Positions 8,861 through 26,694 of a DNA stretch of 64,000 bases are shown piece after piece (within the stretch, counting starts at the first letter, position 1; each line of letters begins with the position of its first letter). A program made the position numbers and the translations under genes. The notes under the pieces are model-generated. The model saw only the letters and a program-made list of their open reading frames with translations, ran no database searches and was not told the origin of the DNA. The stretch is from Candidatus Latescibacterota bacterium (lineage in GTDB: Bacteria > Latescibacterota > UBA2968 > UBA8231). The DNA is taken from contig OZ242005.1 in assembly GCA_965204725.1 (NCBI GenBank), positions 1,536,001 to 1,600,000 of the forward strand, written 5' to 3'.

Positions 8861-8880
8861 AGGGATTCATTCCGCGGCTT

Positions 8881-11784: not shown

Positions 11785-13740
11785 TTGAGCAGCATAAGCT
11801 GCCGGGTGGCGACAAAATCGCCGGCCGATAGCCGGTAGAGATACGCGCCGCTGGCTACCCGCTCGCCGCGCTCGTCGCGGCCGTCCCATTGCTGGCTGTG
11901 CGGCCCGGCGGGCAGAGCACCGCTGAATAGGGTGCGTACGCGCTGCCCGCCCACGCTGTAAATGCTCAATTCGACTTGGGACGGCAGCCCGAGTTGGAAG
12001 GCAATGGTGGTGCTGGGGTTAAAGGGGTTGGGGAAGTTTTGCGCCAATGCAAACGCGGCGGGCACCACGCCTTCGGCCTCGGCCACAGCGGTCTCGGTAG
12101 CTTGCGGCAGGGTGATTTCCCACAGCCCGCGCTTGCCGCCCCATTCGATCACGTAGAGGCGATGGCCGATGATTTCCGCGTCAATGGGGTTGGAAAACTC
12201 GCCTACGAGACGGGTGACACGCGCTTCGTAATTGTCGCCGACTTTGGTCAAATCGAGGTGCAGCAAGTCTTCACTGGGATCGTTGAACGGGCCGTTGATG
12301 CTGTCGCCGTTGGGGTCGCCGGGCGTCCAACTGAGCGTGAAGCCGTCGCCGCGGAACGGCTCGGCGAGGGCGTGGTCCATGTCGAACACCAGTCCCAACG
12401 GCGAGCGGTGCGCGGTGAAGGTGCCGAAGCGTATGCCCTCGTCGCTGGCGTCTTTGATATGGCCGTCGGCTGGATCGCGGTAGGCGTCGGCGTCGGGTCC
12501 GAGGTTGATCACCGGGTCGGTGAAAGCGCGTGGCGGTGGGGGGTATGAGGGATCGTTGTGGTAGTAGCCTTCGCGCACGGCCGTGAACCCGGCCGGGAGG
12601 AGGGAATCGGTGGCTGGGTCGTAGTCGGGAAATTGCTGGGGGGTGTCTTCGAGTCCCATGCGCCACGGGAAGCCGTAGTGGTGCCCTTCGCGCAGCCAGT
12701 TGAGTTCCTCGGCCATGTCGCGGTCCGGCCCGTTTTCCGTGGCGAAGAGATCGCCGTTGGGCGCGAAGGCGAGGTCGTAGGCGTTGCGTAGCCCCTCGGC
12801 AAAGAGGAAGCCGGCCGTGCGGAGGGCGTCGTGGTCGTTGGGCAGGACGAGGTCGCGGGCATCGGTGGGGACGCGCAAGACAATCGCGGTGAGGGCGGTT
12901 TCGCGCAGCCCGGGGAAGGCCCCGTTGCCGTCTTGGATTTCGCCGTGATCGGTGCGGGAGCCGCTGTTGATAAACAGGGAGCGGTTGTCTGGGCTGACGA
13001 CCAGTCCGTTGACATCGTGGTTAAAGATGCAGTCGCACCGCTCGTAGGGGGCGGTTTCTGCGAGGGTGAACCAAGTGCGCTCGCCGCTGGTTGGATCGAC
13101 CTCGCCCTTGGTGATGGTGGCGATGTTGTACTTGGATAGGTCAATGCGCTTGAGGACGTAGAAGGTGCCGGCGTCGTCGATAAACAGTGCGCTGGGGCGG
13201 CTGAGGCCGTGGTCGGCTGCTGTGTACACTGTGCCTTTTGGGACGAGGGTAATGTCGCCGTTGATCCTGAGCGCGTAGCGGGTGTTGGTCGTGGGGTCGC
13301 GGCCGAGGCTGGTCGCGGTGAGGATGTCGTCGATGGGGACGTCGGCTGGTAAGTTGTCCGGGTCGAGCGATTCCCATTGGCGGGTGTCGTCGTCGATCAA
13401 CACGCCGCGCACGAGGGCGAATTGGCCGCTGTCGTGGGGGCCGCGGCGGCTGGACGCCAAGTAAAACGATCCGTCCGGGCCGATGGCAAAGCCGGTGAAG
13501 CCGCTGCGAATGCCATGATCGTCGCTGGAGTATGCGGGCGCGTGTTTGGCGGTCGCTAGGTCAATGCGAGCAATCGTGCCGTCTTGCCGCAAGGTGTAGA
13601 GGGCGTCGTCGCGTGGATCCTTGGCGATGCGAAGGGTGCCTCGGGGGAGGTTGAGGATGCGGCGGATTTCGAGGTCGTCGCGGAAGGCTTGCGGGTTGGC
13701 ATAGGCGGTGGAGCAAAGGGCGGCGAGGGCGAGGGCAAAG
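10141..13740. repeat. Near-identical tandem duplication of the GSDH coding region (about 10141-11770 vs 12114-13740)
   Basis: Long stretches of nucleotide identity at offset 1973 bp, e.g. gatttcccacagcccgcgcttgccgccccattcgatcacg at 10141 and 12114. Confidence 0.9.
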
Positions 13741-13760
13741 GCGAGGGAACGGGTGAACAT
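11781..13760 (-). CDS. PQQ-dependent glucose/sorbosone dehydrogenase-like protein with FlgD/T9SS-A-like tail
   Basis: Signal peptide, the same GSDH motifs and an NFPNPFNPST...WDGRD tail. No cytochrome domain. Confidence 0.85.
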   Translation of the reverse strand: MFTRSLAFALALAALCSTAYANPQAFRDDLEIRRILNLPRGTLRIAKDPRDDALYTLRQDGTIARIDLATAKHAPAYSSDDHGIRSGFTGFAIGPDGSFYLASSRRGPHDSGQFALVRGVLIDDDTRQWESLDPDNLPADVPIDDILTATSLGRDPTTNTRYALRINGDITLVPKGTVYTAADHGLSRPSALFIDDAGTFYVLKRIDLSKYNIATITKGEVDPTSGERTWFTLAETAPYERCDCIFNHDVNGLVVSPDNRSLFINSGSRTDHGEIQDGNGAFPGLRETALTAIVLRVPTDARDLVLPNDHDALRTAGFLFAEGLRNAYDLAFAPNGDLFATENGPDRDMAEELNWLREGHHYGFPWRMGLEDTPQQFPDYDPATDSLLPAGFTAVREGYYHNDPSYPPPPRAFTDPVINLGPDADAYRDPADGHIKDASDEGIRFGTFTAHRSPLGLVFDMDHALAEPFRGDGFTLSWTPGDPNGDSINGPFNDPSEDLLHLDLTKVGDNYEARVTRLVGEFSNPIDAEIIGHRLYVIEWGGKRGLWEITLPQATETAVAEAEGVVPAAFALAQNFPNPFNPSTTIAFQLGLPSQVELSIYSVGGQRVRTLFSGALPAGPHSQQWDGRDERGERVASGAYLYRLSAGDFVATRQLMLLK

Positions 13761-13842
13761 GGGGTCCTTTCGGGGAAGGTGAGGATAATTGGGCTAGCTA
13801 ATCGGGCGTTTACGCCAGCGGGATGCTACAGGTTCCGCGAAA

Positions 13843-14259
13843 TCAAAGTTCACTCAAGGCTTCACGTATAAATGTATCCGGCAGTTGGTCCGTATGTGGA
13901 TACCGCTTGCGCCGATGTTTGCCGTTCATGTTGACGGAGCACAGGGCACCGCCATCCGATTCGCACAATAACGCAACTGAACACCGAAACCCACCGGGAA
14001 TAGAGATGGCAATAACCCCCTCCGGCAGGAGTTCCACCAGATATTGACGGGGCAATATGTCATAGGTTGCTCGTATCAGACGATCCGCGTTGGCAATAGC
14101 CAATTCGGAAGGCGGCGCAATGCCTTCTTCTTCGGCCTCGTCGTTTATCGTGTGCAGATCGTGTAGGGCTTCGGCGAGCGGGGCGGGTACGTCTTCTTCC
14201 GTTGCGCTTTTAGCGGGTACGGCATCGAGAAACGCCCTGCTCGTTGTGTCCTGTGTCAT
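13843..14259 (-). CDS. Hypothetical protein, copy 2
   Basis: AAAGGAG RBS then MTQDTTSRAF. Nearly identical to 14402-14836. Confidence 0.75.
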   Translation of the reverse strand: MTQDTTSRAFLDAVPAKSATEEDVPAPLAEALHDLHTINDEAEEEGIAPPSELAIANADRLIRATYDILPRQYLVELLPEGVIAISIPGGFRCSVALLCESDGGALCSVNMNGKHRRKRYPHTDQLPDTFIREALSEL

Positions 14260-14387
14260 GGAACGGCTCCTTTCACTATAGCCTGCCAAGGATCGAGGTT
14301 CCCGTTTTTAGCTTGACGTGCATATTTGCTTGAAAATACGCCCCGCCCCAAAGTCTCGTTCGGAGATATGCTCTGAGGGAGGCTCAT
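14256..14387 (-). pseudogene. Truncated ORF (43 aa) cut at a REP-end sequence
   Basis: Hand translation MSLPQSISPNETLGRGVFSSKYARQAKNGN-LDPWQA-IVKGAVP*. LDPWQA is encoded by an 18-bp match to 8745-8762. Confidence 0.5.
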
Positions 14388-14401
14388 GAGAACCAACCGA
14401 T

Positions 14402-14836
14402 TTACTCCTGTCCCAGTTCACTCAAGGCTTCACGTATAAATCTATCTGGCAGTTGGTCCGTATGTGGATACCGCTTGCGCCGATGTTTTCCGCTCATGTT
14501 GACCGAGCACAAGGCCCCGCCATCCGATTCGCACAATAACATAACAGAACGCCGAAACCCACCGGGAATCCTGATAGCAATAACCCCCTCCGGCAGGAGT
14601 TCGACCAGATATTGACGGGGCAATATGTCATAGGTTGCTCGTAGCAGACGATCCGCGTTGGCAATAGCCAATTCGGAAGGCGGCGCAATGCCTTCTTCTT
14701 CGGCCTCGTCGTTTATCTCGTTAAGATCGCGTAGGGCTTCGGCGAGCGGAGCGGGTACGTCTTCTTCTATTGCGTTTTCAGGGAGTACGGCATCAAGAGA
14801 CGCCCTAAACGCCCGGCTCGTTGTGTCCTGTGTCAT
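14402..14836 (-). CDS. Hypothetical protein, copy 1
   Basis: 144-aa ORF with RBS AAAGGAG. Duplicated downstream. Confidence 0.8.
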   Translation of the reverse strand: MTQDTTSRAFRASLDAVLPENAIEEDVPAPLAEALRDLNEINDEAEEEGIAPPSELAIANADRLLRATYDILPRQYLVELLPEGVIAIRIPGGFRRSVMLLCESDGGALCSVNMSGKHRRKRYPHTDQLPDRFIREALSELGQE

Positions 14837-14978
14837 GGAACGGCTCCTTTCACTATAGACGCTTCATATCCGATGCGTTTCCGTGGTATTGTGAACACCT
14901 CGGCCAAAACGTCTTTGCCTATGCAATCGGCCCAAATATAGTCTGCCCGGATGCCTATGTCGAATAGACTAGGGCAGT

Positions 14979-15085
14979 CTAGAAGGTGTCAATCCGCGTC
15001 TTTTTGCCGCCGTGGACATGTCCCGAAAAACCGGCAGGTTGTCGGAGTGAAAGATCGTGCCGGGCTGGACGTTGAGGTGGGTCAT
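14979..15085 (-). pseudogene. Chimeric remnant: N-terminus of an N4/N6 DNA methyltransferase joined to the 3' end of a type IIG R-M gene copy
   Basis: ATG at 15085 reads MTHLNVQPGTIFHSDNLPVFRDM (GDNL.VL-type MTase start). 14988-15017 matches 16146-16175 at 29/30 nt (VHGGKKTRID). Confidence 0.65.
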
Positions 15086-15105
15086 GGTTGGTCGCCTTTC
15101 TCATC

Positions 15106-15936
15106 TTAAAATGAGTGATGTGAAGATCCGCCCTTCATCGCCATCTCTACTGTTTCGTCGATCAGGTCCATGGGCACAACCTCGATCAGATCTGCCGTTT
15201 CCTTGCCCTCGCCTATTGGGGAGAAACTACGTTTCATTACCATCCCAATTAGCCAAGCACCCGGCACTGCTTGCGTACCCTCAGCGGCCCCCATCTCTGG
15301 CTTTGTTATAACAGGCCCTCCGCTGTTCCCGGGGAATCCAGACCCATCCACCAAGAATGTGTCGTGGTCGCTGTCTATCCACCCTTGAATCTGAGCCAGC
15401 ATTCCGTGCCTCACAATCGGATAGTCTTGTTTTCCTGCCCTCCATCCGATTGGGAACCCGAGCACAAATACTTCGCCGCCTTCGCTAAGGCCAATTTCTA
15501 CGGCATCTGCTCTTTTAAGCGCATTTCCAACTTCTACAACACCTGCTCCCCTTAGCACCTTCCCTCTTGCGGCAAAAGTCTCCCACTGAAGCCCCTTTTT
15601 TTCAAAGTCTTCCCATACTGCCGGGATAACTGCCACGTCAGCTCCTGGGTGCAGCGTCCACTCATTGCCTTCACTCTGTCGAATATTGAAGGTCTGCTTC
15701 CCTTGGTTGCCGGATTTGTTCAGCCGCACCATCATGTCTGGCTGAATAGCGTGTTTGCATGTCACAAGCCAGAGCCTGTATCCATTATGCACCTGTTTGT
15801 CTGAAATAGGATAGGCATATAGAAACCCTGTCGCTGTTTCGGACATTGGCTCTCCTGTTACTAATAATCTTCCTATGCCGGTCATCTCTCCTAGTGCAAC
15901 AACTGATTTCAGATACTTGGGTGGCAATAAAGCCAT
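15106..15936 (-). CDS. Trypsin-like serine protease (no signal peptide)
   Basis: Catalytic triad motifs LVTCKH, ADVAVI and GFPGNSGGPV. Confidence 0.85.
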   Translation of the reverse strand: MALLPPKYLKSVVALGEMTGIGRLLVTGEPMSETATGFLYAYPISDKQVHNGYRLWLVTCKHAIQPDMMVRLNKSGNQGKQTFNIRQSEGNEWTLHPGADVAVIPAVWEDFEKKGLQWETFAARGKVLRGAGVVEVGNALKRADAVEIGLSEGGEVFVLGFPIGWRAGKQDYPIVRHGMLAQIQGWIDSDHDTFLVDGSGFPGNSGGPVITKPEMGAAEGTQAVPGAWLIGMVMKRSFSPIGEGKETADLIEVVPMDLIDETVEMAMKGGSSHHSF

Positions 15937-16139
15937 GAGGCATCTCCTTCTTTTGAAAAAGTGAAGGGTCCAGCCGATTGGCGGCCCTAGTCAACTACCT
16001 ATCGCCGCATGTTGTTTCTACTTGGCTAATCGCCTTTGCAGCCCCCTTGACTCGCACAGCCTCTTGGCGGCGATAGACTGCCGCCGCCGCCCGTTGCTGC
16101 TCTCGGCTCAAGCAAAGGACAGATAGGTTGTATCCCACG

Positions 16140-19061
16140 TCAGGCGTCAATCCGCGTCTTCTTGCCGCCGTGGACGCTTGGCTCGGCGCACCATTGGTCG
16201 CGCAAAATGGCGAGCGGTTCGAGGGCGGCTTCGGGCAGGTGCAATAGGTCGATCAAGACGGCGTGGTCGAGGGCTTGGCGAGCGTCGTCCCGATACGCCT
16301 CGTTGGCTGGGAGAAACGCCGCGTCCTTGAATCGCTCAAAGATCGCCTCGGCTTGGGCTAGCTGCTCTTGGCTGAGGGAACGCGGGTCCAAGACCGTCAG
16401 GCGGGGCAGTTGAGTGATCGTGAGACACGCCCGGCCCTGCTGCTGGCGGGTTCCGACCCACCAGAAGGCGAGGAGGCCCAGCGTCGTGTTGGACCACAAG
16501 ACGAGGGGAGTGGTCCAATCTTCTCGCTCTAAAATGAAGTTAGGCCATGCCCGACCGCCGATGGCTTTGGCCGGTGTGAGGCAGGCGGTGAAGCTTTGCG
16601 AGTTGATCCGAAAATCTCGGTTAAAGTGTAGCCGCGAGGCTGTCGCCTTCCAGACTCTAACGGGGTGGTCGTCGCAGCCGGGCCGCACCTCGCCTTCGCT
16701 ATCGGGCAGGACGACGAGACTCCGTTCGTTCTGAGCAGAGTGATTCCACAACACTGGGTACTGGGGCACCCCTTGAATGGGGATGATGTTAAACGGCCCT
16801 CGCGGACCACCCTTGCTGTCTTTTCCGTTAATGTCCATGTGGTATAACCCCCTCTCGCCAAGGGACCCGAGGGGAGTCGTGGAAAGCGGCGCGGCATACC
16901 CTTGGGGGAGGCCGAGCATCCCTTTCTCTAATTTCATGGCCGTGGCGGCCAGCGTCGTTTCACGGAGAGACGCACAGCCGCCTTGGGTCAGCGGTGCCCG
17001 GATGTACGTGCCGATGGTCTCGCGGTCACCCACACAGAGCCGCCCCTGCTTCGCTTGAGACGGGAGGCGATGTACCGCCCGCGCCATCTCGAAAGCCTCC
17101 GCGAGATTGTGCGGCCGGTGACGGAGATTGACAAATAGCGTTTCTCTGTGTTCCTCGTTTTGCCCATCGCGCTGCTTGGTAGCCACTACGAGTGCTTCGG
17201 CCATACCTGTATCTGCCGAAAAAGCCCGATCCGTCGAACCGTGCGTCGCAATCGTCAGCACGGTCAAATCCTCGTACTCGCGTTCCAATAAGCGACGGAC
17301 CTCTCTCCAAGAGTCACCGTTCACACAAGCCGCTGGCAGCACTAATGCGAGGACACCGCCCGGCTTGACCTTGACATGGGCGAGATCGATGAAGTTAGAG
17401 GCCAACCCTGCGTTGCCGTCTCCAATTACGTAGCCCCCCTTCTTCTTCAGATTCGTGCAAATTTTCTTTAGGCGAGCACTCATTTTTCTCTGCTCGTCTT
17501 CGCTGGTATCGAATCCGGCAAAGGCGGGGACGGGAATGCCCACCTTGGAACCCTCCTGCCCCGTAGGTCTCGTAAAGGGCGGGTTCATAATCACCAGATC
17601 CGCCGTTTCGCGGGGGAGGATCATGTCTTGGCTCCCCTCGGCTTCCACATCCTCGCCCGTGCCGTGCGCCACGGTGACACCAGTCCCAAACAGCGATGGC
17701 GCGGTGTCATCCTCAATCAGGTCGAGTGCGCCCAGTGCCATAGTATGCCGCTTTTCCGCGCTCTGCTGTCCGTAGGGCAGAGTGTGGACGCGGGTGTGTC
17801 CAAAGGTCGTCCCCGGATGGGCGGACGAGAGCATGGACGCGGTCAGGTGGGTGGCCGCTGGCATGATGTCGGCCGCGACGAGGGCGCGTTCCATCATTTG
17901 CCGATGCAGCGTCTGATCGTCGCCGCCGGTCCGCCGATGCCGTGCCGATAGAGCGCGATACGCCGCCGAGAGTAGGGCACCCGTGCCACAGGCTAAGTCC
18001 GCGACTTGCAGGCCGATGAGAGCGTCCGGGTCGGACCAATCCGTCTCTGCGTCGAGACGAGCCACGGCCAACTCGCCAAGCAGGGCCGCCGAGGTCGGCA
18101 GAGTGTAGAAGGTGGCGAGGAACTTCCGGTCCGCGATGAGCCGTTGGAACATCCGCCCGGAAAGATCGTGCAAGGTCGTTGCGCCCAAGCCCGCCAAATC
18201 GCTGGCCGCTTGCGCGAGGCGATTGAGGACCGCATTGGCCGTGCCGTCGGGAATGGGCAGCAGCAAATCGGAGGCAATGCGAAAGATCGGATAGTAGTTG
18301 ATGTCATCGAGGATGCGCTGCCAACAGGCCAGCAACCGGCTCTTGCTGACATCGTTGCGCCCCGGAATACGCAATTCGTCGATGGTGTCGATATTGTGCG
18401 CTTCAACAATAGCGGTATGAAAGACGAGCGCGTTGGCGACGATAGCCATCGCCATGCGCGAAGTTTGCTCGCCATCCTCTTGGTAGAGGAACTGCGCCAT
18501 CTTCTTGAGCGTGTGCGGGCCAGCCGTTTCACGCAACTCGCCGCTGGCCTCGCCAATGCTCTGTTCGAGAATCTGCGTTCCCTCCGCCAGCAGTCGCTCA
18601 GACAGCGACACGTTCTCAATACAACTCGCCAGATCGTCAATCGTGCCGACGAGCCAGCCGGTGGCCGGCCAGCGCACGGCCCTATCCGCTGCTTGCAGGG
18701 CGTGTGTGCAATAGCGGAACTCGGCATCCCTGATCGCCCGCTCCAAGTCTTGCTGCGGCACCTCACTCAGGTCTTGCGGAATTTGAACGGCGATGGTTTG
18801 CTCAATCTGGGCACCCTGATACTGCAAGAATTGCCCCAAGCGTTTGCGGGCATCTTCTTCGACGCTGCGCGCCGGTTCAAATTCGGTTTCGAGGACGACC
18901 GGGATGCCGCCCGGCGGGCGAATGACGATGTCCGGCCGTTGCGCGATCTCGCGGACGACGCCCTGTTGCTCCGCCCCGGTGCGGTCGCGCCAACGCGGAT
19001 GCTTAGTCCGCAGCACATTCGACAGGGCGACATTAAAGGCGATTTCGTTGGTTCGGGGCAC
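16140..19061 (-). CDS. Type IIG-like restriction-modification enzyme (nuclease-like N-terminus + N6-adenine MTase + target recognition domain)
   Basis: RPDIVI...VLETEF is PD-(D/E)xK-like. FYT, DLACGTG (motif I) and MNPPF (motif IV). Confidence 0.85.
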   Translation of the reverse strand: MPRTNEIAFNVALSNVLRTKHPRWRDRTGAEQQGVVREIAQRPDIVIRPPGGIPVVLETEFEPARSVEEDARKRLGQFLQYQGAQIEQTIAVQIPQDLSEVPQQDLERAIRDAEFRYCTHALQAADRAVRWPATGWLVGTIDDLASCIENVSLSERLLAEGTQILEQSIGEASGELRETAGPHTLKKMAQFLYQEDGEQTSRMAMAIVANALVFHTAIVEAHNIDTIDELRIPGRNDVSKSRLLACWQRILDDINYYPIFRIASDLLLPIPDGTANAVLNRLAQAASDLAGLGATTLHDLSGRMFQRLIADRKFLATFYTLPTSAALLGELAVARLDAETDWSDPDALIGLQVADLACGTGALLSAAYRALSARHRRTGGDDQTLHRQMMERALVAADIMPAATHLTASMLSSAHPGTTFGHTRVHTLPYGQQSAEKRHTMALGALDLIEDDTAPSLFGTGVTVAHGTGEDVEAEGSQDMILPRETADLVIMNPPFTRPTGQEGSKVGIPVPAFAGFDTSEDEQRKMSARLKKICTNLKKKGGYVIGDGNAGLASNFIDLAHVKVKPGGVLALVLPAACVNGDSWREVRRLLEREYEDLTVLTIATHGSTDRAFSADTGMAEALVVATKQRDGQNEEHRETLFVNLRHRPHNLAEAFEMARAVHRLPSQAKQGRLCVGDRETIGTYIRAPLTQGGCASLRETTLAATAMKLEKGMLGLPQGYAAPLSTTPLGSLGERGLYHMDINGKDSKGGPRGPFNIIPIQGVPQYPVLWNHSAQNERSLVVLPDSEGEVRPGCDDHPVRVWKATASRLHFNRDFRINSQSFTACLTPAKAIGGRAWPNFILEREDWTTPLVLWSNTTLGLLAFWWVGTRQQQGRACLTITQLPRLTVLDPRSLSQEQLAQAEAIFERFKDAAFLPANEAYRDDARQALDHAVLIDLLHLPEAALEPLAILRDQWCAEPSVHGGKKTRIDA

Positions 19062-19128
19062 GGTTCCTTCTTGACGGTTCGGCCGCAGTGGACGATCAGG
19101 GGCGGTTCAAGCTCAAATCCCCGACTCC

Positions 19129-19596
19129 CTAGGTGCTTGGGCCGCAGGCTCCATCCCCTAGGTCTGACGGCGCGGGGTCATAGGTTTTTAGGAAGATGTC
19201 GTGCTTGCACGGATACCACTCGCCGGAGATCCCCTGAATAAGCCAGTCGCCCGTCCTGAACACTTGGATGCCCTCTAGCGTCTCGATGTACCCGTCGATG
19301 ATGGGGCTGTCCTCGTTGCGGTTGACTTGGAGCTTCCGATTTTTTGCTATCGGCAGATTATCGAGCCGGTCCCACTCGGCAGGGGAGGCTTCGCCGACCC
19401 GGGTCGCTTGGATGGTCTCCGGCCTTTTCCGATAGGATTTCAGCTCATACGGAGCAGGGACGCCCAAGGGCATTTGCGGGTTTTCGGCACCTTTGGGCAT
19501 GGGAATAGGATTCTTCATCTTGGGTATAATCCTATTCTCACCGAGTGCGATCTCGGCCGACCTTTTTGGGGACGTGGGGCTATTCTTCTTTTTCAT
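19129..19596 (-). CDS. Pro-rich N-terminus fused to a PGDYG-like (phage-type YRKKP...TLEG...GEWYPCK) domain
   Basis: ATG at 19596 after AGGAGAG. YRKRPETIQA...IETLEG...GDWLIQGISGEWYPCKHDIFLKTY. Confidence 0.7.
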   Translation of the reverse strand: MKKKNSPTSPKRSAEIALGENRIIPKMKNPIPMPKGAENPQMPLGVPAPYELKSYRKRPETIQATRVGEASPAEWDRLDNLPIAKNRKLQVNRNEDSPIIDGYIETLEGIQVFRTGDWLIQGISGEWYPCKHDIFLKTYDPAPSDLGDGACGPST

Positions 19597-19597
19597 C

Positions 19598-20125
19598 TTA
19601 ACTCTCCTCTGTAGCATAAGCCCTAGCATAGAGCGCGAAATATGCCTCTGTTCGTCTTGATGCTTCGGTTTCGCATTTTGGTCTTGTCGGCAGGGACTGG
19701 CTCTTAAAGTGTTCGTTGACGGCTTCTTGTTCCCGCCGTTTTAGGTCAATGCGTAAGGCGAAAATTTCCTCATCTGTACGTTTTCCTTCAAATACTGAAA
19801 ACCACTGACTTTCCGCGTCGAGGGCAAGTTTTTCCTGTTCGTTACAAAGCCCCCCGAGTGCCTTAGCGCGTTTCTGAAAGGGCAGGAGATGCTTGACAGC
19901 ATGAACTACCTGTGAGGCTGCAATTAACCCACCCCAAATCATGCCGTATTCATCCCAAATAGCCCATCCCGCAATGCTCGAACTAGAGGTGATAGCTAAA
20001 AATGTCTGTATCCGAGTATCCCATTTTTCCAAGAGCATCCGATAGGTGCTCAAATAATAAACACCAAACCTGAGTTGCACTAAGGTATCCCAGTATAGAC
20101 GCTGATAGTTCAAGTTGCGCTCCAC
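19598..20125 (-). CDS. SLATT-like two-TM membrane protein
   Basis: Two adjacent hydrophobic helices (TFLAITSSSSIAGWAIW; MIWGGLIAASQVVHAV) followed by a helical charged tail. Confidence 0.65.
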   Translation of the reverse strand: MERNLNYQRLYWDTLVQLRFGVYYLSTYRMLLEKWDTRIQTFLAITSSSSIAGWAIWDEYGMIWGGLIAASQVVHAVKHLLPFQKRAKALGGLCNEQEKLALDAESQWFSVFEGKRTDEEIFALRIDLKRREQEAVNEHFKSQSLPTRPKCETEASRRTEAYFALYARAYATEES

Positions 20126-20148
20126 CTGCTTTTTACTCCGTCACACGC

Positions 20149-21513
20149 CTATAGCCCTTTGATGTAGAGGTCTGAGAAAGGCTTCGTCAACGACTGTTTG
20201 ACTTCTGCCAGCACCGCATCCATGTCGTCGTTCCATTCGGCGTCCGGCGGAAATTTATTTAACCTGACCAGCTCCCGATCTTCCGGGTTTTCCTTTACAT
20301 GGACCTCAAGCCACTTGAGGATCGTCATGCTGTGGGTAGAGACCACCACGTTGACTCCCTGACGGGCTAACTCAAAGAGGATCGCCGCCATCTCAACTTG
20401 CCAAGCCGAATGGAGATTGGACTCCGGTTCATCGAAAAAAAGAAAAGAGCCGCGCTCTAAGGCCCCTCGTTCAATCAACAGGGCCAGCATTCCTAGGTTT
20501 GCAACGCCCGCCGACGCGAGGGAGAGCGGAATCGACTTGCCGTTTTTTTGAAATTCAAGATCACCTGCTTCGCTCAGCGCAATTTTTCCGCCAATCGCAT
20601 CGTGCAGCCTGTTGTGGATTCCGGTGAGAGGATGGTTTATATGCGTCCTTCGGAGGGAGGCGGCTAGGTCGTAGAAGTACGCTGGGACGCCATTCAGAGA
20701 ATGCTCTAAAGGGGAACGCGAGCCGAGCTTAATCGACTCCAGAGGGTTTTTCAGTTTCCAATAAAACGGAGATTCTAAATAGAAGACTTCGGGAAATGAT
20801 GACCCGTTTTCAATGATTTGCGGGCTGGGAATGAATCCGAGCTCGGAGTCCACTTCTGTCCGTAATTCGCCTACGCCTTGGACGCTGAAATACAAGGGGG
20901 AATCTCCGTCCCCTTTAAGCGTTAAAAAGTCAGACACTTGAAAATTTCCATATATATTCTGGCGAAACTTGTAAGACCATCCGAGGCTAATGGCGTCTTC
21001 TACGTCGCTAAAGCTCTCTTCCAAATGATTTATGATGGTTGTGAGGGCGCCGTGCATATCAGATGAAGAGGCGTGGCCACCGGCTTTTCTCGTTTTAATG
21101 TCATTTTCGAGGGCGTGTAAGTGGCCCTTTATTTCCTCGCTCTCAGCCATCAATACAGGATGCACCGACTTGAGCGCGTCGAGTTCACTTTGGTTCGGAT
21201 GACTTGGATATGCCTTCCGCAGGATAGAGTCGATTTTTTCTACCCCCTTTCTAATGGCGGACAAGGAGTGTGTTCCTCGCTCACTATAATAGCCTTGCAA
21301 AGTCGATTCGGAGATAGAGGTAATCAAATAAGAAAGTGATTCAAAAGATTCTAGGGCATGATTTGCATTCCGCGCATCAAGCGTCGAATACAGCATCTTC
21401 GACACGAGCGTCTTGCCGGTATTGTTCGGCCCGGCGAATACCGTGAACGGACCAACTTGGACGGTCGCCTCGCTGATTGGCCCCAAGTTCGCAATTTTTA
21501 ACTCAAGGTCCAT
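20149..21513 (-). CDS. ABC-superfamily AAA_15/AAA_21 ATPase (OLD/AbiE/PARIS-like defence ATPase)
   Basis: LKIANLGPI, Walker A GPNNTGKT, signature ASAG, Walker B FFDEPE..LH, switch STHS. Confidence 0.85.
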   Translation of the reverse strand: MDLELKIANLGPISEATVQVGPFTVFAGPNNTGKTLVSKMLYSTLDARNANHALESFESLSYLITSISESTLQGYYSERGTHSLSAIRKGVEKIDSILRKAYPSHPNQSELDALKSVHPVLMAESEEIKGHLHALENDIKTRKAGGHASSSDMHGALTTIINHLEESFSDVEDAISLGWSYKFRQNIYGNFQVSDFLTLKGDGDSPLYFSVQGVGELRTEVDSELGFIPSPQIIENGSSFPEVFYLESPFYWKLKNPLESIKLGSRSPLEHSLNGVPAYFYDLAASLRRTHINHPLTGIHNRLHDAIGGKIALSEAGDLEFQKNGKSIPLSLASAGVANLGMLALLIERGALERGSFLFFDEPESNLHSAWQVEMAAILFELARQGVNVVVSTHSMTILKWLEVHVKENPEDRELVRLNKFPPDAEWNDDMDAVLAEVKQSLTKPFSDLYIKGL

Positions 21514-21531
21514 AAGCCCCTTCCTTTATTA

Positions 21532-21666
21532 AAAGCGGTCTGAAGACTCTGGTGGTCGTCCCTTGCGTCTAAATGATCCCGACTGGATTCCCGCGTTCGC
21601 GGGAATGACGGATCTCGTCTCTACGGCTTGTCCAACACGCCCCAAGGTGGATTTTCAGACAGCCTC
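21532..21666. mobile_element. Putative MITE-like element with imperfect TIRs, TTA flanks and an internal REP
   Basis: Left end AAAGCGGTCTGAAGA vs reverse complement of right end GAGGCTGTCTGAAAA (11/15). TTA at 21529-31 and 21667-69. Confidence 0.4.
21585..21609. repeat. REP-type palindrome GGATTCCCGCGTTCGCGGGAATGAC
   Basis: Perfect 9-bp stem ATTCCCGCG-TT-CGCGGGAAT; the widespread ATTCCC...GGGAATGAC REP class. Confidence 0.8.
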
Positions 21667-21707
21667 TTAGGGCCTTTGTGTCCGCCGCCCGTCCCATAGC
21701 TGGGCGA

Positions 21708-23090
21708 TTAGCTGGCGATCTGGTCGCCAAAGAGGGTGTGCGAGGTGGTGCGGGTGATGCGGATGGCTACGAGATCGTTGTGCGCGGCGGGTTGCGGGAA
21801 AATCGCTGTCTTGCCCTGTGGGGTGCGGCCGTAGTAGCGGGGCTGACCGTCGGCCGCTGGCCGCTTGGATGGGCCTTCGACGAGGACCTCGACCGTGCGA
21901 CCGACGTACCGCTGGTTGATCTGGCGCGAAATATCCTCTTGCAGGGCGATGATGTGCTGGAGGCGCTCGCCCTTGACGGCTTCGGGGATGTCGTCGGGCA
22001 GCTTCTTGTGGGCGTAGGTGCCCTCGCGTTCCGAGTATTTGAACATGAAAGCCGAGTCGTAGCGGATCTCTTCCATTAGATCGCAGGTCTGGCGGAAGTC
22101 CGCGTCGGTCTCGCCGCAAAAGCCGGTGATGATGTCGGTCGTCAGGGCGAGATCGGGCAGGGCCGAGCGTAGCTTCTGCACGAGCCGGCGGTATTGATCG
22201 ATGGTGTACCCGCGACGCATGCGAGCGAGTTGGTCGTCCGAGCCGCTCTGTACCGGCAGGTGTAGGCTCGGGCACACCGAGCCGACCTCGGCCATGGCGT
22301 GGATCACGCGGTCGGTAAAGTCAACCGGATAGGGCGAGGTGAAGCGCACCCGCTCAATGCCATCGACTTGGCTGACTCGCCGCAACAAATCGGCGAAATC
22401 CACGTTGCCAGCGCGGTAGGAATTAACGGTCTGCCCGAGTAAGGTAACTTCTCTAAAGCCCTCGGCGGCAAGGTGCTGTACTTGCTGCACAACCTCGTCC
22501 GCGGGGACGCTGCGCTCCCGGCCGCGCACAAAGGGCACAATGCAGAAGGTGCAGAATTTGTCGCAACCGCGAATGATGGTCACCCAAGCGTTGGTGCCGG
22601 TTGTGCGCTGGGGATGAACGCCGCTGTAGTTTTCAGAGCGGTCGAGCCGCACGTCTAAGAGCGCGTCGTCGCTGGATTGGGCGAGAAGCTGAGGCAGGCG
22701 GCGGTAGGAATCCGGCCCCATGACCAGATCGACGAAAGGAGCGCGGTCGGGCAAGGTCTTGCTCAGGTGTTGGGCCATGCAGCCGAGGATGCCCAAGGTG
22801 AGGTTGGGGCGGTGGGCGCGGAGCCCGTTGAGCTGGCTGACGCGGCCAATGACCCGCTCCTCAGCGTGTTCGCGCACCGCGCAGGTATTGAGCAGGATGA
22901 TGGCGGCCTGCTCGGCTCGTTCGGTAATCTGAAACCCAGCGTCGGCGAGGATGCTGGCGACCAGCTCGCTGTCGGCCACGTTCATCTGGCAGCCGTAGGT
23001 TTCGATGTACACGCGGCGGCCCGCTGGCCCAGGGCGCGTGGCCACGGGCTGGTATTCGGCTGTGGGGGCGTTGAGAAGGGGCAAGTTCAT
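21708..23090 (-). CDS. miaB: tRNA-2-methylthio-N6-dimethylallyladenosine synthase
   Basis: TYGCQMNVADSE, NTCAVRE, GCMAQ, GCDKFCTFCIVP and a C-terminal TRAM domain. Confidence 0.95.
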   Translation of the reverse strand: MNLPLLNAPTAEYQPVATRPGPAGRRVYIETYGCQMNVADSELVASILADAGFQITERAEQAAIILLNTCAVREHAEERVIGRVSQLNGLRAHRPNLTLGILGCMAQHLSKTLPDRAPFVDLVMGPDSYRRLPQLLAQSSDDALLDVRLDRSENYSGVHPQRTTGTNAWVTIIRGCDKFCTFCIVPFVRGRERSVPADEVVQQVQHLAAEGFREVTLLGQTVNSYRAGNVDFADLLRRVSQVDGIERVRFTSPYPVDFTDRVIHAMAEVGSVCPSLHLPVQSGSDDQLARMRRGYTIDQYRRLVQKLRSALPDLALTTDIITGFCGETDADFRQTCDLMEEIRYDSAFMFKYSEREGTYAHKKLPDDIPEAVKGERLQHIIALQEDISRQINQRYVGRTVEVLVEGPSKRPAADGQPRYYGRTPQGKTAIFPQPAAHNDLVAIRITRTTSHTLFGDQIAS

Positions 23091-24406
23091 GGGCGCGCTC
23101 CAAAAGTTAGCTCTTCGCGGGCTTGCTCAATCTGCACATCCACGAACTCGTTGGGTGTGGCCGAGCCAGCGAAAAGGACCTTGACGTAGTTGTCGCTCAA
23201 GCCGACCTGCAAGCCGGTCGCTCGGTCGGGGCGTCCCTCGGCGAGGACTGGGAGCGAGCGGCCGACAAAGCGCTGGTGGAAGGCGAGCCGCTTGGCGGCA
23301 CCGAGGGCGATGAGGGCTTGGGCCCGCTCCTTTTTGACCGCGGCGTCTTGGTGCTCGGGCAGCCGCTCGGCCGGGGTGCCGGCGCGCTGCGAGTACGAAA
23401 ACACGTGGAGATAGGTCAACGGCAGATCGGCCAACAAGGCGCGGGTCTGGGCAAAATGCGCGTCGGTTTCCCCGGGAAAGCCCACCATGACGTCGGTGCC
23501 AATGGCGCAATCGGGGATGCGGCGGGCGATTTGCTCAATCCGCTCGGCGTAGTAGGAGCGAGTGTAGCGCCGCCCCATGCGCTTGAGAATGAGGTCGTCG
23601 CCGCTTTGCAAAGGCACGTGAAAGTGGCGGCAGATAGCCGAGGAAGCCGCGGCGCGGTCGATCAGCGCGTCGGTGACGTAGCCCGGCTCAATGGAGTTGA
23701 GGCGGATGCGCGCCAAGCCGTTGATTTGCTCTAGGGCTGCGAGCAGCTCGACGAGTGCCTCGGGCTGGCCTTGGTCATGGCCGTAGCGCCCGGTGTGGAC
23801 GCCGGTTAGGGCCAGCTCGCGGTAGCCGGCCGCGACCATGCGCTCGGCTTGGGCAATGACTTCGGCGGCGGGGCGGCTCGCACTAGGCCCGCGCACGGCC
23901 GGGATGATGCAATAGGTGCAGTGCTCGTCGCAGCCGTCTTGGATTTGCAGGCTGCCGCGGGTGCGGCCTTGGGGCACTGCGCCGTCAATGGCGAGAAATT
24001 GCTCGGTGCGCGGCCTCGTGGCCGAGGGCGCGGGGAGCTCGATGCCGGCTAGATGCGCTTCGAGCAGCTCGACGAGCTGGGCCTTCTGGCCGTTGCCCAC
24101 GACCAAATCGGCGCCGGCCGCTGCGAGGTCGGCCGGCCGCCGCTGGGCATAGCAGCCGGTGGCGACGACCTCCGCGCTGGGATTGCGCCGCCTTGCGCGA
24201 CGCACCGCCTTGCGCGAGTCCGCATCGCCGGCGCCGGTGACCGTGCAGGTATTGACCACGTACACGTCGGCTTCCGAGCGGAAGGGCACGATGGAATAGC
24301 CGCGCTCGGCGAGGCGGTGGGCGAGGGCTTCTACTTCGTAGGCGTTGAGCTTGCACCCCACGTTTTGCAGGGCCACGCGCGTATTTGCGGATGTTGGAGT
24401 GCTCAT
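23087..24406 (-). CDS. mtaB: tRNA threonylcarbamoyladenosine methylthiotransferase
   Basis: GCKLNAYE, VNTCTVT, TGCYAQ, QDGCDEHCTYCIIP, HVFSYS.R.GT. Confidence 0.9.
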   Translation of the reverse strand: MSTPTSANTRVALQNVGCKLNAYEVEALAHRLAERGYSIVPFRSEADVYVVNTCTVTGAGDADSRKAVRRARRRNPSAEVVATGCYAQRRPADLAAAGADLVVGNGQKAQLVELLEAHLAGIELPAPSATRPRTEQFLAIDGAVPQGRTRGSLQIQDGCDEHCTYCIIPAVRGPSASRPAAEVIAQAERMVAAGYRELALTGVHTGRYGHDQGQPEALVELLAALEQINGLARIRLNSIEPGYVTDALIDRAAASSAICRHFHVPLQSGDDLILKRMGRRYTRSYYAERIEQIARRIPDCAIGTDVMVGFPGETDAHFAQTRALLADLPLTYLHVFSYSQRAGTPAERLPEHQDAAVKKERAQALIALGAAKRLAFHQRFVGRSLPVLAEGRPDRATGLQVGLSDNYVKVLFAGSATPNEFVDVQIEQAREELTFGARP

Positions 24407-24474
24407 AAGTACCTAAAGGGAAACGAGATAGATAATAAAATTAAGGATGGCCCTTCACCGGGGCAATGGGCCGT

Positions 24475-26694
24475 TTAGGCGGGTTCGAGCTGGGCGTAGG
24501 CGACCGCAATGCGTTTGGTCTGCGTCTTAAAGCGGATGGAGAGCTTGGTCTTTTCGCCGTGCCCTTCGCGGCTGACTATTTGCCCGCGCCCCCATTGGGG
24601 GTGGCGCACCCACTGACCAACGGCGAGGAAGTCGTCTTGGGCGATAAACTCGTCAAACCCGGACGCCTGCTCTGCGTCCCACTCGTAGTGGACGCCTTGG
24701 GGCACCTTCTTTTGTTTGCGGCGCGGCGGGCTGACGCGCTGCCGCGAGCGGGCCACGCCGCGGTCTAGCTCATAGGTCTGGGCCGTCAGTTCAGCGGGGA
24801 TTTCGCCCAAGAACCGCGAGGGCTCGGTGGCAAGCAGCGAGCCGTACGCATAGCGGCGCAGGGCATAGGTCAGGCTGAGCTGCTCTCGCGCCCGGGTCAT
24901 GCCCACGTAGCAGAGCCGGCGCTCCTCTTCAATGGCCTGGGGATCGTCGATGGCTCGGGCGGTGGGAAAGAGGTTTTCTTCGAGGCCGCAGACAAAGACC
25001 AAGGGAAACTCCAAGCCCTTGGCGCTGTGCAAGGTCATCAAGGTAATGGCATTGCCATCGTCGTCGCTTTCGTCGGCCGAGGTCAGCAGGGATTTTTCTT
25101 CGAGATAGGTCGCCAATGTCGAGTTGGGGTTCGCGTCTGCGTACTCGGTCATCTCGGCCAATAACTGGTCGAGGTTTTGCAAGCGCGCCTCGGCTTCGGG
25201 AGTGTTTTCCGCCGCGAGCATGGAGCGGTATTCGCTCTTTTCGACGACGGCAAAGCCCAGCTCGGGCAGGGAGATGGCCTCGGTCGCGGCCCTTAGCTCG
25301 CCGATTAGGTCGGCAAAGGCAGCGAGGCTCTTTTTTGCGCGGCCGCTGAGGCTGGGCACATCGCTGAGGTGGGCCAGCGCCGTGGAAAGGCTCCAGTCTT
25401 GGGTTTGGGCGAAATCCTGCAAGCGGGCGAGGGATGTATCGCCAATGCCGCGCCGGGGCGTATTGACGATGCGGCGCAGGGCCATGTCGTCGGCCGGGTT
25501 GACCAATAGGCGCAAATAGGCCAGCACGTCGCGAATTTCTCGGCGGTCGTAAAAGCGGATGCCCCCGACGATTCGATAGGGCAGGCTGGCGCGCTGGAGC
25601 TCCTCTTCAAAGAGCCGCGACTGGGCGTTGGTGCGGTAGAGCACGGCCGCGTCCCCGAGGCGGTAGCGGCCCAAGCGGTCGTAGCGGCGGATGCAATCGA
25701 CGACGTGGCGGGCCTCGCGGCGGTCTGAGTCGCATTCGACGACTGCAATGGGATCGCCCTCGGGGCCTTCGGTCCACAGCTTTTTGCCCTTGCGGCCTTG
25801 GTTGTGGCCGATGACGGCGTTGGCCGCGGCGAGGATGCGGCCGGTCGAGCGGTAGTTTTGCTCCAGCCGTACGCTGCGGGCGTCTGGGTAGTCGCGCTCA
25901 AAGTCGAGAATGTTGCGGATGTCGGCGCCGCGGAATTGGTAGATCGACTGGTCGTCGTCTCCGACCACGCACAGGTTGCGGTGGTGTGCCGCTAGCTGGC
26001 GGCAGAGCAAGTACTGGGGCCGGTTGGTGTCTTGGTATTCATCGACGAGCAGGTGCTCAAAACGCTCTTGGTAGGTTTGCAGAATGTCTGGGTGGCGGTC
26101 GAATTGGCGCACGACTTCGAGGAGCAAGTCGTCGAAATCGAGGGCTTGGTTGCGGCGCAACTCGCGCTCGTAGTCGGCGTAGAGTTCGGCGATTTGTTGT
26201 TGGCGCTCGCTCGCTTGGCTGGCGAATTCCAACGGGCCGAGCATGGCGTTTTTGGCGTGGCTGATCTGGCTGACGACCGCGCGCGGAGCGAGCTCGCGCT
26301 CGTCGATTTGGTGGGCTTCGAGAACGCGGCGCATGGTGGCGCGGCGGTCGTCTTCGTCGTAGATGGAGAAATTGGGATCGAGGCCAAACTGCGCGGCTTG
26401 GCGGCGCAGGATGCGCGCGCAGATGGAGTGAAAGGTGCCGACCCATAGCTCGGCGACCGCCGAGCCGCCGAGCTGCTCGATGCGCTCGCGCATTTCGCCG
26501 GCCGCCTTGTTGGTAAAGGTTGCGGCGAGGATGCGCCACGGGGGCACGCCGACTTCTTCGATGAGAAAGGCGATGCGATGGGTGAGGACGCGGGTCTTGC
26601 CCGAGCCGGCCCCGGCGAGGATCAGCAGCGGGCCGCCGAGGGCCTCGGCCGCACGGCGTTGCGCCGGATTGAGGGCGTCTAGTAGGCTGGACAT
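24475..26694 (-). CDS. pcrA: UvrD/PcrA SF1A DNA helicase
   Basis: LAGAGSGKT, TFTNKAA, DEYQDTN, GDDDQSIY.FRGA, NYRST, TLHSAKGLEF, EERRL.YV and a C-terminal Tudor-like domain. Confidence 0.92.
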   Translation of the reverse strand: MSSLLDALNPAQRRAAEALGGPLLILAGAGSGKTRVLTHRIAFLIEEVGVPPWRILAATFTNKAAGEMRERIEQLGGSAVAELWVGTFHSICARILRRQAAQFGLDPNFSIYDEDDRRATMRRVLEAHQIDERELAPRAVVSQISHAKNAMLGPLEFASQASERQQQIAELYADYERELRRNQALDFDDLLLEVVRQFDRHPDILQTYQERFEHLLVDEYQDTNRPQYLLCRQLAAHHRNLCVVGDDDQSIYQFRGADIRNILDFERDYPDARSVRLEQNYRSTGRILAAANAVIGHNQGRKGKKLWTEGPEGDPIAVVECDSDRREARHVVDCIRRYDRLGRYRLGDAAVLYRTNAQSRLFEEELQRASLPYRIVGGIRFYDRREIRDVLAYLRLLVNPADDMALRRIVNTPRRGIGDTSLARLQDFAQTQDWSLSTALAHLSDVPSLSGRAKKSLAAFADLIGELRAATEAISLPELGFAVVEKSEYRSMLAAENTPEAEARLQNLDQLLAEMTEYADANPNSTLATYLEEKSLLTSADESDDDGNAITLMTLHSAKGLEFPLVFVCGLEENLFPTARAIDDPQAIEEERRLCYVGMTRAREQLSLTYALRRYAYGSLLATEPSRFLGEIPAELTAQTYELDRGVARSRQRVSPPRRKQKKVPQGVHYEWDAEQASGFDEFIAQDDFLAVGQWVRHPQWGRGQIVSREGHGEKTKLSIRFKTQTKRIAVAYAQLEPA

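Follow-up and report, generated by a model that had tools for sequence, protein, structure and literature searches.

Three tightly packed minus-strand genes in a 64,000-nt stretch of contig OZ242005.1 from a Candidatus Latescibacterota bacterium (the window; position 1 is its first letter) encode an ABC-type ATPase, a small helical protein with two hydrophobic stretches (two-transmembrane, 2TM) and a third protein that carries a domain common in phages. Comparison with related loci shows that the ATPase's partner gene has been precisely replaced here by an apparently mobile two-gene cassette, consisting of the 2TM gene and a gene for a small proline-rich peptide, and that in the lineage of the window the cassette's peptide has been fused to the phage-type domain. 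The locus is a recent chimera and not a conserved three-gene system. A reading of the sequence alone had proposed the three genes as a candidate anti-phage module. The close packing in a low-G+C islet that it described is borne out by the coordinates and the composition profile: the gaps are 23 bp between the ATPase and 2TM genes, 1 bp between the 2TM gene and the third gene and 67 bp from there to a methylase-like gene, and the G+C content is 0.49-0.54 over positions 19000-21500 compared with 0.61-0.66 in both flanks. The conserved module itself did not survive the comparison, since no synteny of the three genes was found outside near-identical strains.

The borders of the replacement were read from a blastn alignment of the window to the closest relative, locus L109. 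As far as the ATPase stop codon (20149) the two sequences are 93.7% identical, and from 19066 on they are 95.1% identical, with homology resuming 5 nt before the start of the methylase-like gene, and between 20149 and 19066 the 1082 bp of the window and the 570 bp of L109 share no blastn homology. Since homology breaks at the ATPase stop and resumes at the methylase-like start, the partner gene has been exchanged exactly, open reading frame (ORF) for ORF. We retrieved 30 ATPase loci including that of the window, and in all 29 others (L109-L137) a conserved partner ORF of ~181-199 aa, typically ~184 aa, begins at the ATPase stop codon. Because even paralogues of ~40% identity keep this partner, its presence is the ancestral state, and the lack of a usual ATPase partner that had been noted from the sequence alone can be traced to the 1082-bp replacement. 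None of the 29 other ATPase loci contains the 2TM gene, and the 92 other loci at which we found the 2TM gene contain neither a relative of the ATPase (tblastn at 1e-4; phmmer at E<=1) nor the phage-type domain, their small ORFs included. These 92 loci, which together with the window make up the 93 loci counted below, comprise 12 from genomes and the best 80 of 218 confirmed in metagenomes by a search with a 13-row alignment, and many lie on short contigs. The three genes are not artefacts of a single assembly; the fused third protein is found as 15 cluster members, of which 13 were aligned and are 94-100% identical to the protein of the window, and the 2TM protein is found as 20, whose contigs agree in length with those of the fused protein.

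A partner slot overwritten by an unrelated membrane-protein cassette amounts to a swap caught in the act, and with the ancestral state intact in 29 related loci it offers a natural experiment on the exchange and orphaning of defence modules. The kinds of element involved (an ABC-ATPase defence operon, 2TM effectors and cassette slots) are all known; their combination is new. As far as the consulted part of the preprint on embedded defence cassettes goes ('guilt by embedding', Payne et al. 2024), the locus agrees with such cassettes in that a gap between conserved defence genes serves as a cassette-exchange slot, but differs in that the gene replaced in the window is the ATPase's own partner and not an extra, embedded cassette. 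The features of the locus are collected in Table 1.

Table 1. Features of the locus, in window coordinates.
Feature	Position	Strand	Basis or remark
ABC-type ATPase gene, 454 aa	21513..20149	minus	AAA_15/AAA_21
2TM helical protein gene, 175 aa	20125..19598	minus	two hydrophobic stretches
Third protein gene, 155 aa	19596..19129	minus	ATG 1 nt past the 2TM stop
Methyltransferase-like (methylase-like) gene, 973 aa	16140..19061	minus	PADLOC mad2 4.7e-11, MTase_II 2.1e-8; downstream border of the slot
Replaced segment, 1082 bp	19067..20148	minus	blastn against the closest relative, L109; in relatives a 570-bp gene, the ATPase's ~184-aa partner
Micro-peptide part of the third protein, residues 1-52	19441..19596	minus	R..P....PMP.G motif; tblastn and DNA alignment to L002-L008
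Phage-type beta domain of the third protein, residues 53-142	19171..19440	minus	phrog_419, phrog_4502, phrog_1810
Trypsin-like serine protease gene	15106..15936	minus	Pfam Trypsin_2 5.4e-9; PADLOC PDC-S45 3.5e-14

The ATPase scores well above both of its Pfam cut-offs (AAA_15, 59.1 bits against 32.1; AAA_21, 50.4 bits against 27), in agreement with the class proposed for it from the sequence, and Walker A (GPNNTGKT) and Walker B (FFDEPE) motifs are readable in its translation. Its nearest defence models in PADLOC are HEC-02A (5e-30), PD-T4-4_A (4.8e-25) and PDC-M47A (1.3e-22); the best-matched stretches of the first two span residues ~296-409 only, and altogether 88 PADLOC ATPase models match. 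Over its full length the protein matches the hidden Markov model (HMM) of phrog_14430 (4.8e-68), despite which tblastn returned no match in phage records at 1e-10. Within the phylum the ATPase was found in 44 of 168 genomes at E<=1e-10, and its full-length homologs fall into 27 loci at 58-83% identity and three more at ~40%. Compared with L109 and L110, the ATPase gene has a mosaic identity profile: most of its first two thirds lies at 78-88%, with a single 100-nt bin at 94%, and its last third at 91-97%, a pattern suggestive of a recombination tract or of a variable insert for sensing.

The partner protein of the relatives is defined by an invariant C.CCDY...IEET...LK.YGS.LVLCRL pattern that includes D41, E56-E57 and K94, invariant residues from which we would tentatively class it as a nuclease. 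It matches no Pfam family below E 0.01 and no NERD model, and in PADLOC only PDC-M47B (E 0.027), in one of four proteins. The partner ORF is truncated in three of the 29 loci (L122, L126 and L134). In addition, the ATPase itself is split in L132 and L134, so that the ATPase-partner pair shows decay among the relatives. Homologs of the methylase-like gene (80-94% identical) directly follow the partner gene in at least nine loci (L109, L110, L113, L114, L117, L119, L124, L126 and L130). A second ATPase in the window genome, 46% identical to the first, has an intact ~184-aa partner (G000:C1:2269901-2271927, L138), and the genome therefore keeps one complete pair.

HEC-02 and PD-T4-4, in the portions of their descriptions available to us, are two-gene anti-phage systems made up of an ABC ATPase with a NERD nuclease and of an NTPase with a PD-(D/E)xK nuclease, respectively. 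They provide the top PADLOC scores of our ATPase, and an ATPase followed by a small conserved partner, as in the related loci, is the same layout. The differences are that the match is best only over the C-terminal ~115 residues of the ATPase, that the relatives' partner lacks a Pfam or NERD match, and that in the window, where the partner is gone, neither of the genes that follow the ATPase has a Pfam or PADLOC hit, so that no such nuclease is present.

The 2TM protein of the window has no match in Pfam, PADLOC or NCBIfam, and the start used by its relatives corresponds to a TTG at 20116. A profile search recovered 1093 cluster representatives (50% identity) at E<=1e-3, 641 of them at E<=1e-10 and most 160-180 aa long, so that the cassette belongs to a large and undescribed family, a minority of which weakly match PADLOC: among 64 relatives, two CBASS '2TM Effector' models match five and three members and RTasSLATT matches three, with a best E of 3.1e-5. 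The 2TM gene has no match in phage records. Its AlphaFold2 (AF2) model is all-helical, with five helices and a mean predicted local distance difference test (pLDDT) score of 93.6. The hydrophobic stretches, read from the sequence at residues ~40-58 and 61-80, bear conserved SSSSI..W..W and W...IA.SQV motifs, and the conserved residues are W54, W57, W64, Q72 and P82. Foldseek found nothing in PDB at E<=0.001, the top rows being long-helix proteins such as CdvB2. In the ESM Atlas, nine of 30 neighbours of the 2TM protein are clusters with SLATT_4 in 12% of their members.

In architecture the protein resembles the SLATT and CBASS 2TM effectors, as well as ThsH of type VII Thoeris and the DRT-associated SLATT proteins, in being small and in having two hydrophobic helices flanked by cytoplasmic helices; furthermore, some members of the family adjoin TIR genes. 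It differs from them in that the window has no nucleotide-making enzyme nearby and in that the cassette carries its own conserved micro-peptide, for which we found no description in the parts of the SLATT and 2TM literature consulted.

This micro-peptide was recognized because the DNA of the window remains alignable with that of its relatives past the 2TM stop codon, into a small ORF that corresponds to the N-terminus of the window's third protein. Judging by sequence conservation, the first ~45 residues of that protein are a micro-peptide found alongside the 2TM gene throughout the family, a feature overlooked in the sequence-only reading. A script located a small ORF (at least 35 aa) at -55 to +184 nt from the 2TM stop in 77 of the 93 loci, 83 of the 93 having at least 300 nt of downstream sequence. 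The motif pattern is present in 52 of these 77 ORFs and a literal PMP in 47, compared with a PMP in 37 of 1238 longer neighbour ORFs, and several of the motif 'misses' bear variants such as MPPVK and MPPGAA. The peptides are proline-rich, ~40-80 aa in size and lie directly downstream of the 2TM gene. An alignment of 31 of them yields (D/E)x(R/K)xLP followed after ~5 residues by PMPxVKPPK; M33 and P34 are invariant, and an R or K precedes the (G)LP motif in ~25. For example, a 48-aa ORF with the PMP motif starts 5 nt after the 2TM homologue on plasmid NC_016108.1 of Methylotuvimicrobium alcaliphilum 20Z (L139:4503-4649); it is unlisted in the annotated gene table, the only one checked for the peptide, which is known to be incomplete. 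In the window, an alternative 166-aa reading of the third protein from 19629 overlaps the 2TM gene. Within the reach of Pfam, NCBIfam, PADLOC and the parts consulted of the defence literature on TIR, caspase, 2TM and Thoeris proteins, a peptide-bearing 2TM cassette is new.

Residues 53-142 of the third protein match PHROG families (phrog_419, 1.2e-17; phrog_4502, 2e-13; phrog_1810, 1.3e-10). The sequence-only reading had recognized a phage-common domain with a characteristic motif in this protein, and rightly so: YRKxP...TLEG...GDW...GEWYPCK.DIF..TY is present, and tblastn with the domain found matches in 703 phage records from many hosts, the annotated features being all hypothetical or 'phage-related protein' among the 30 matches listed. 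The AF2 model of the third protein has a mean pLDDT of 71 (75-94 over residues 91-140) and is beta-rich with two short helices. A wide VIA-align search with the domain gave a best Z of 4.1, with weak SH3/Tudor-like rows only, and neither a sequence match in PDB at E<=10 nor a Foldseek match at E<=0.001 was obtained. The joining of a regulatory peptide of the host to a domain carried by 703 phage genomes hints that this domain is used here as a decoy or a sensor.

Two identities that had been suggested for this domain were not sustained. PGDYG (PF14083) is repeatedly the top Pfam match, and the nearest ESM Atlas cluster with a family is PGDYG (score 0.83, 10% share), but the match, found in five of seven proteins, reaches only 13.0-13.7 bits (E 0.084-0.14) against a cut-off of 27 bits and spans only positions 3-38 of the 102 in the profile. 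The other candidate was an Acb4-type cyclic-nucleotide sponge. According to the section of the Acb4 preprint available to us, that family is PF13876 and its protomer fold is alpha-beta-beta-beta-alpha; none of seven proteins, including the window's domain, matches PF13876 in Pfam at E<=10, no Acb4 or Tad2 sponge entry occurs among the Foldseek PDB rows shown, and the fold rows are SH3/Tudor-like only. The domain thus shares with PGDYG, Acb4 and Tad2 its small size, its frequency in phages and a weak top Pfam match to the first of these, and differs in scoring far below the PGDYG cut-off, in lacking a PF13876 match and in its beta-rich, SH3-like model.

The settings in which the 2TM gene occurs elsewhere are diverse. 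Only one combination of operon partners recurs, a ThsB-like TIR gene with a caspase gene (Peptidase_C14), at eight of the 93 loci (seven distinct), and the 2TM gene stands either before or after this pair, both orders being found. TIR and caspase operons with the 2TM gene and the PMP peptide as their third and fourth genes are seen at L060:1801-3731, L036:581-2694, L014:149-2051 and L004:4666-8754; in L004 an insertion sequence (IS) element (rve) lies between them. Further neighbours are HEPN-DUF499, GmrSD_C and PLD-SNF2. A Pfam tally of 62 adjacent genes includes families of defence (caspase, 3; ThsB_TIR, 2; Abi_C, 2; N6_Mtase, 2; AIPR, Type_ISP_C, Eco57I and DUF4062) as well as housekeeping (SufBD, 2-oxoacid_dh, ECH and BamB-like). 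In five Latescibacterota genomes the 2TM gene stands by itself, with an M16 peptidase gene on one side and MFS/ROK genes on the other, and around 8001-8516 in L009-L011 the copy at the M16 peptidase/MFS site seems frameshifted or interrupted and looks decayed. One cassette copy lies on the conjugative plasmid NC_016108.1, beside an AAA ATPase/S8 peptidase pair. The cassette appears to be both autonomous and mobile.

Type IV Thoeris is described as a two-gene operon in which a TIR protein is paired with a caspase-like protease, and the text of the preprint at our disposal contains neither 'transmembrane' nor 'additional gene'. The cassette is similar in its adjacency to ThsB-like TIR and Peptidase_C14 genes; the window itself differs, with neither a TIR nor a caspase domain found by Pfam among the seven island proteins scanned. 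The repeated linkage suggests that the cassette is a further part of, or a companion to, type IV Thoeris-like systems.

We favour the explanation, to which we give roughly even chances, that an autonomous membrane-toxin/peptide cassette was dropped into the slot of a defence operon. The ancestral operon held a HEC-02A/PD-T4-4A-like ABC ATPase, its cognate ~184-aa partner and often the large methylase-like gene; the partner gene was then overwritten by a self-contained, widespread cassette of a 2TM protein and a proline-rich peptide, and the tail of the peptide was in turn exchanged for the small beta domain of phage type. The 2TM protein would be a membrane-damaging toxin or an abortive-infection effector, and the peptide would bind its cytoplasmic helices and control it, acting as a brake in the manner of an antitoxin or as the part that senses the trigger. 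The cassette would act alone, as at many other genomic places, leaving the ATPase an orphan or at best newly coupled, and the phage-type domain may make release of the brake dependent on a phage factor. Toxicity of the 2TM protein, its control by the peptide and a role in defence are what we infer for the cassette. An effector-like nature is favoured by the TIR and caspase genes next to the cassette at eight loci, by the matches of some members to the CBASS '2TM Effector' and RTasSLATT models and by the ESM Atlas clusters with SLATT_4.

Several observations weigh against this explanation. Housekeeping genes surround many of the cassette copies, and a role outside defence would account for this just as well. 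Neither flanking ORF is cut by the borders of the swap, and the four genes are co-oriented with short gaps, as would be the case in a functional effector exchange; the ATPase is intact and so is not visibly decaying. Support for the effector class is uneven as well: no Pfam SLATT model has a match at E<=1 among 64 family members, PF18186 (SLATT_4) matches none of the 168 genomes of the phylum, including that of the window (as a control, the model matches in four of 401 genomes of another class), and hhalign of the 2TM family against the SLATT_4 profile is weak, with a probability of 12.4% and an E of 0.0023 over 120 colinear columns, and with probabilities of 0.8% and 11.5% against single SLATT_4 proteins. 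The description of the 2TM protein as a SLATT-like effector, made from the sequence alone, accordingly holds for its all-helical form, its two hydrophobic helices and its weak remote links to SLATT and 2TM proteins, and does not extend to a Pfam SLATT match; since the tests are mixed, 'SLATT-like' is a fair description of architecture, and by sequence the family is possibly a distant relative of the SLATT/CBASS 2TM effectors rather than an established member. In favour of peptide binding, prediction of a complex between the 2TM protein and the peptide gave a median score of 0.41 compared with 0.01 for the best of three controls, with contact agreement of at least 71% between runs and a partner pLDDT of at least 50, a verdict of 'weak support' under a mark that 58 of 80 solved complexes and two of 110 mismatches attain, only seven of the 80 lying at scores <=0.60. 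The predicted interaction is thus only a weak pass, and low passes are often wrong. Moreover, the motif of the window's own peptide is slightly degenerate (AENPQ, where its relatives have AKPPK), and with its tail replaced the peptide may no longer act as it does in the relatives.

The integrity of the operon lends itself to a second, rather unlikely explanation, a functional effector exchange in which the ABC ATPase senses infection and controls the 2TM protein in place of its former partner, with the peptide-phage-domain fusion as a gate or decoy, and which would make the locus an abortive-infection system of a new, ATPase-2TM kind. In its favour, the replacement leaves the ORFs intact and is precise, the operon with its short gaps is kept, and the stretches between the three genes are free of terminator-like sites (the region has three such sites, compared with 3.6 expected by chance, all within the ATPase gene). 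ABC ATPases of the same class have been described, in the sources as far as consulted, as pairing with diverse effectors, and the arrangement, with its ATPase intact, persists in several near-identical assemblies. However, the swap is young, the variants of the fused protein being 94-100% identical, and a sensor-effector interface would have had to arise at once between an ATPase family and a 2TM family that do not meet at any of the other 92 and 29 loci. The cassette also brings its own conserved peptide and lives alone elsewhere, in line with the autonomous cassette that we favour. Its solitary copies, five of them between M16 peptidase and MFS genes, its location amid housekeeping genes, the decayed-looking copies of L009-L011 and the lack of the 2TM gene in phage records would suit a plain addiction or stress module (a toxin-antitoxin-like or membrane-homeostasis pair) with no part in phage defence, whose incidental insertion destroyed a defence gene and whose fusion is a neutral accident. 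We regard this as quite unlikely, given the recurrent linkage to TIR and caspase genes in both orders and the proximity of HEPN-DUF499, GmrSD_C, PLD-SNF2, Abi_C and AIPR, the weak matches of some members to CBASS 2TM and DRT-SLATT effector models, and the position of the insertion within a defence islet.

The last explanation considered overlaps with the autonomous cassette and specifies how the peptide might work: as a plug that inhibits the 2TM protein until it is cleaved at the conserved basic residue, at TIR-caspase loci by a caspase-like protease with Arg specificity or otherwise by a trypsin-like protease, which would free the 2TM protein to permeabilise the membrane. The frequent R or K before the (G)LP motif, the caspase genes that adjoin the cassette at eight loci and the trypsin-like protease gene of the window all speak for it, as does the reporter peptide of the type IV Thoeris caspase, which ends in Arg in the part of the source available. 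Most cassette copies, however, have no protease neighbour, the same source in part describes that caspase as an indiscriminate cleaver of many proteins, and cleavage of the peptide is purely conjectural, so that we consider a protease-gated pore the least probable of the possibilities discussed here. A broader speculation, decidedly unlikely as well, is that the 2TM protein and the PMPxVKPPK micro-peptide constitute a new family of membrane-pore effectors that is very widespread and whose members are plugged by a peptide; in it the plug would be released either by caspase-like or trypsin-like proteolysis at the basic residue or by a phage factor; in the window the plug would have captured a phage domain, so that a phage component would release the pore directly, and the ATPase operon would supply expression or sensing.

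Around the island, signatures of mobility were sought. There are no tRNA genes at 8000-26000 of the window, and no inverted repeats were found around the island. A 34-nt direct repeat, 94% identical, occurs at 14984-15017 and 16142-16175; its sequence is that of the 3' end of the methylase-like gene, and it brackets the trypsin-like protease gene, which lies 204 bp beyond the methylase-like gene. The repeat looks like the scar of a cassette insertion behind the methylase-like gene, and such a second scar flanking the protease gene is a further likeness to the embedded defence cassettes. The protease is a neighbour rather than an established member of the module. Farther on, at 13843-14289 and 14402-14836, two genes of 148 and 144 aa match no Pfam family, the 144-aa copy having no match in NCBIfam, PHROGs or PADLOC either; they are tandem paralogues that share a 300-nt repeat with 94% identity.

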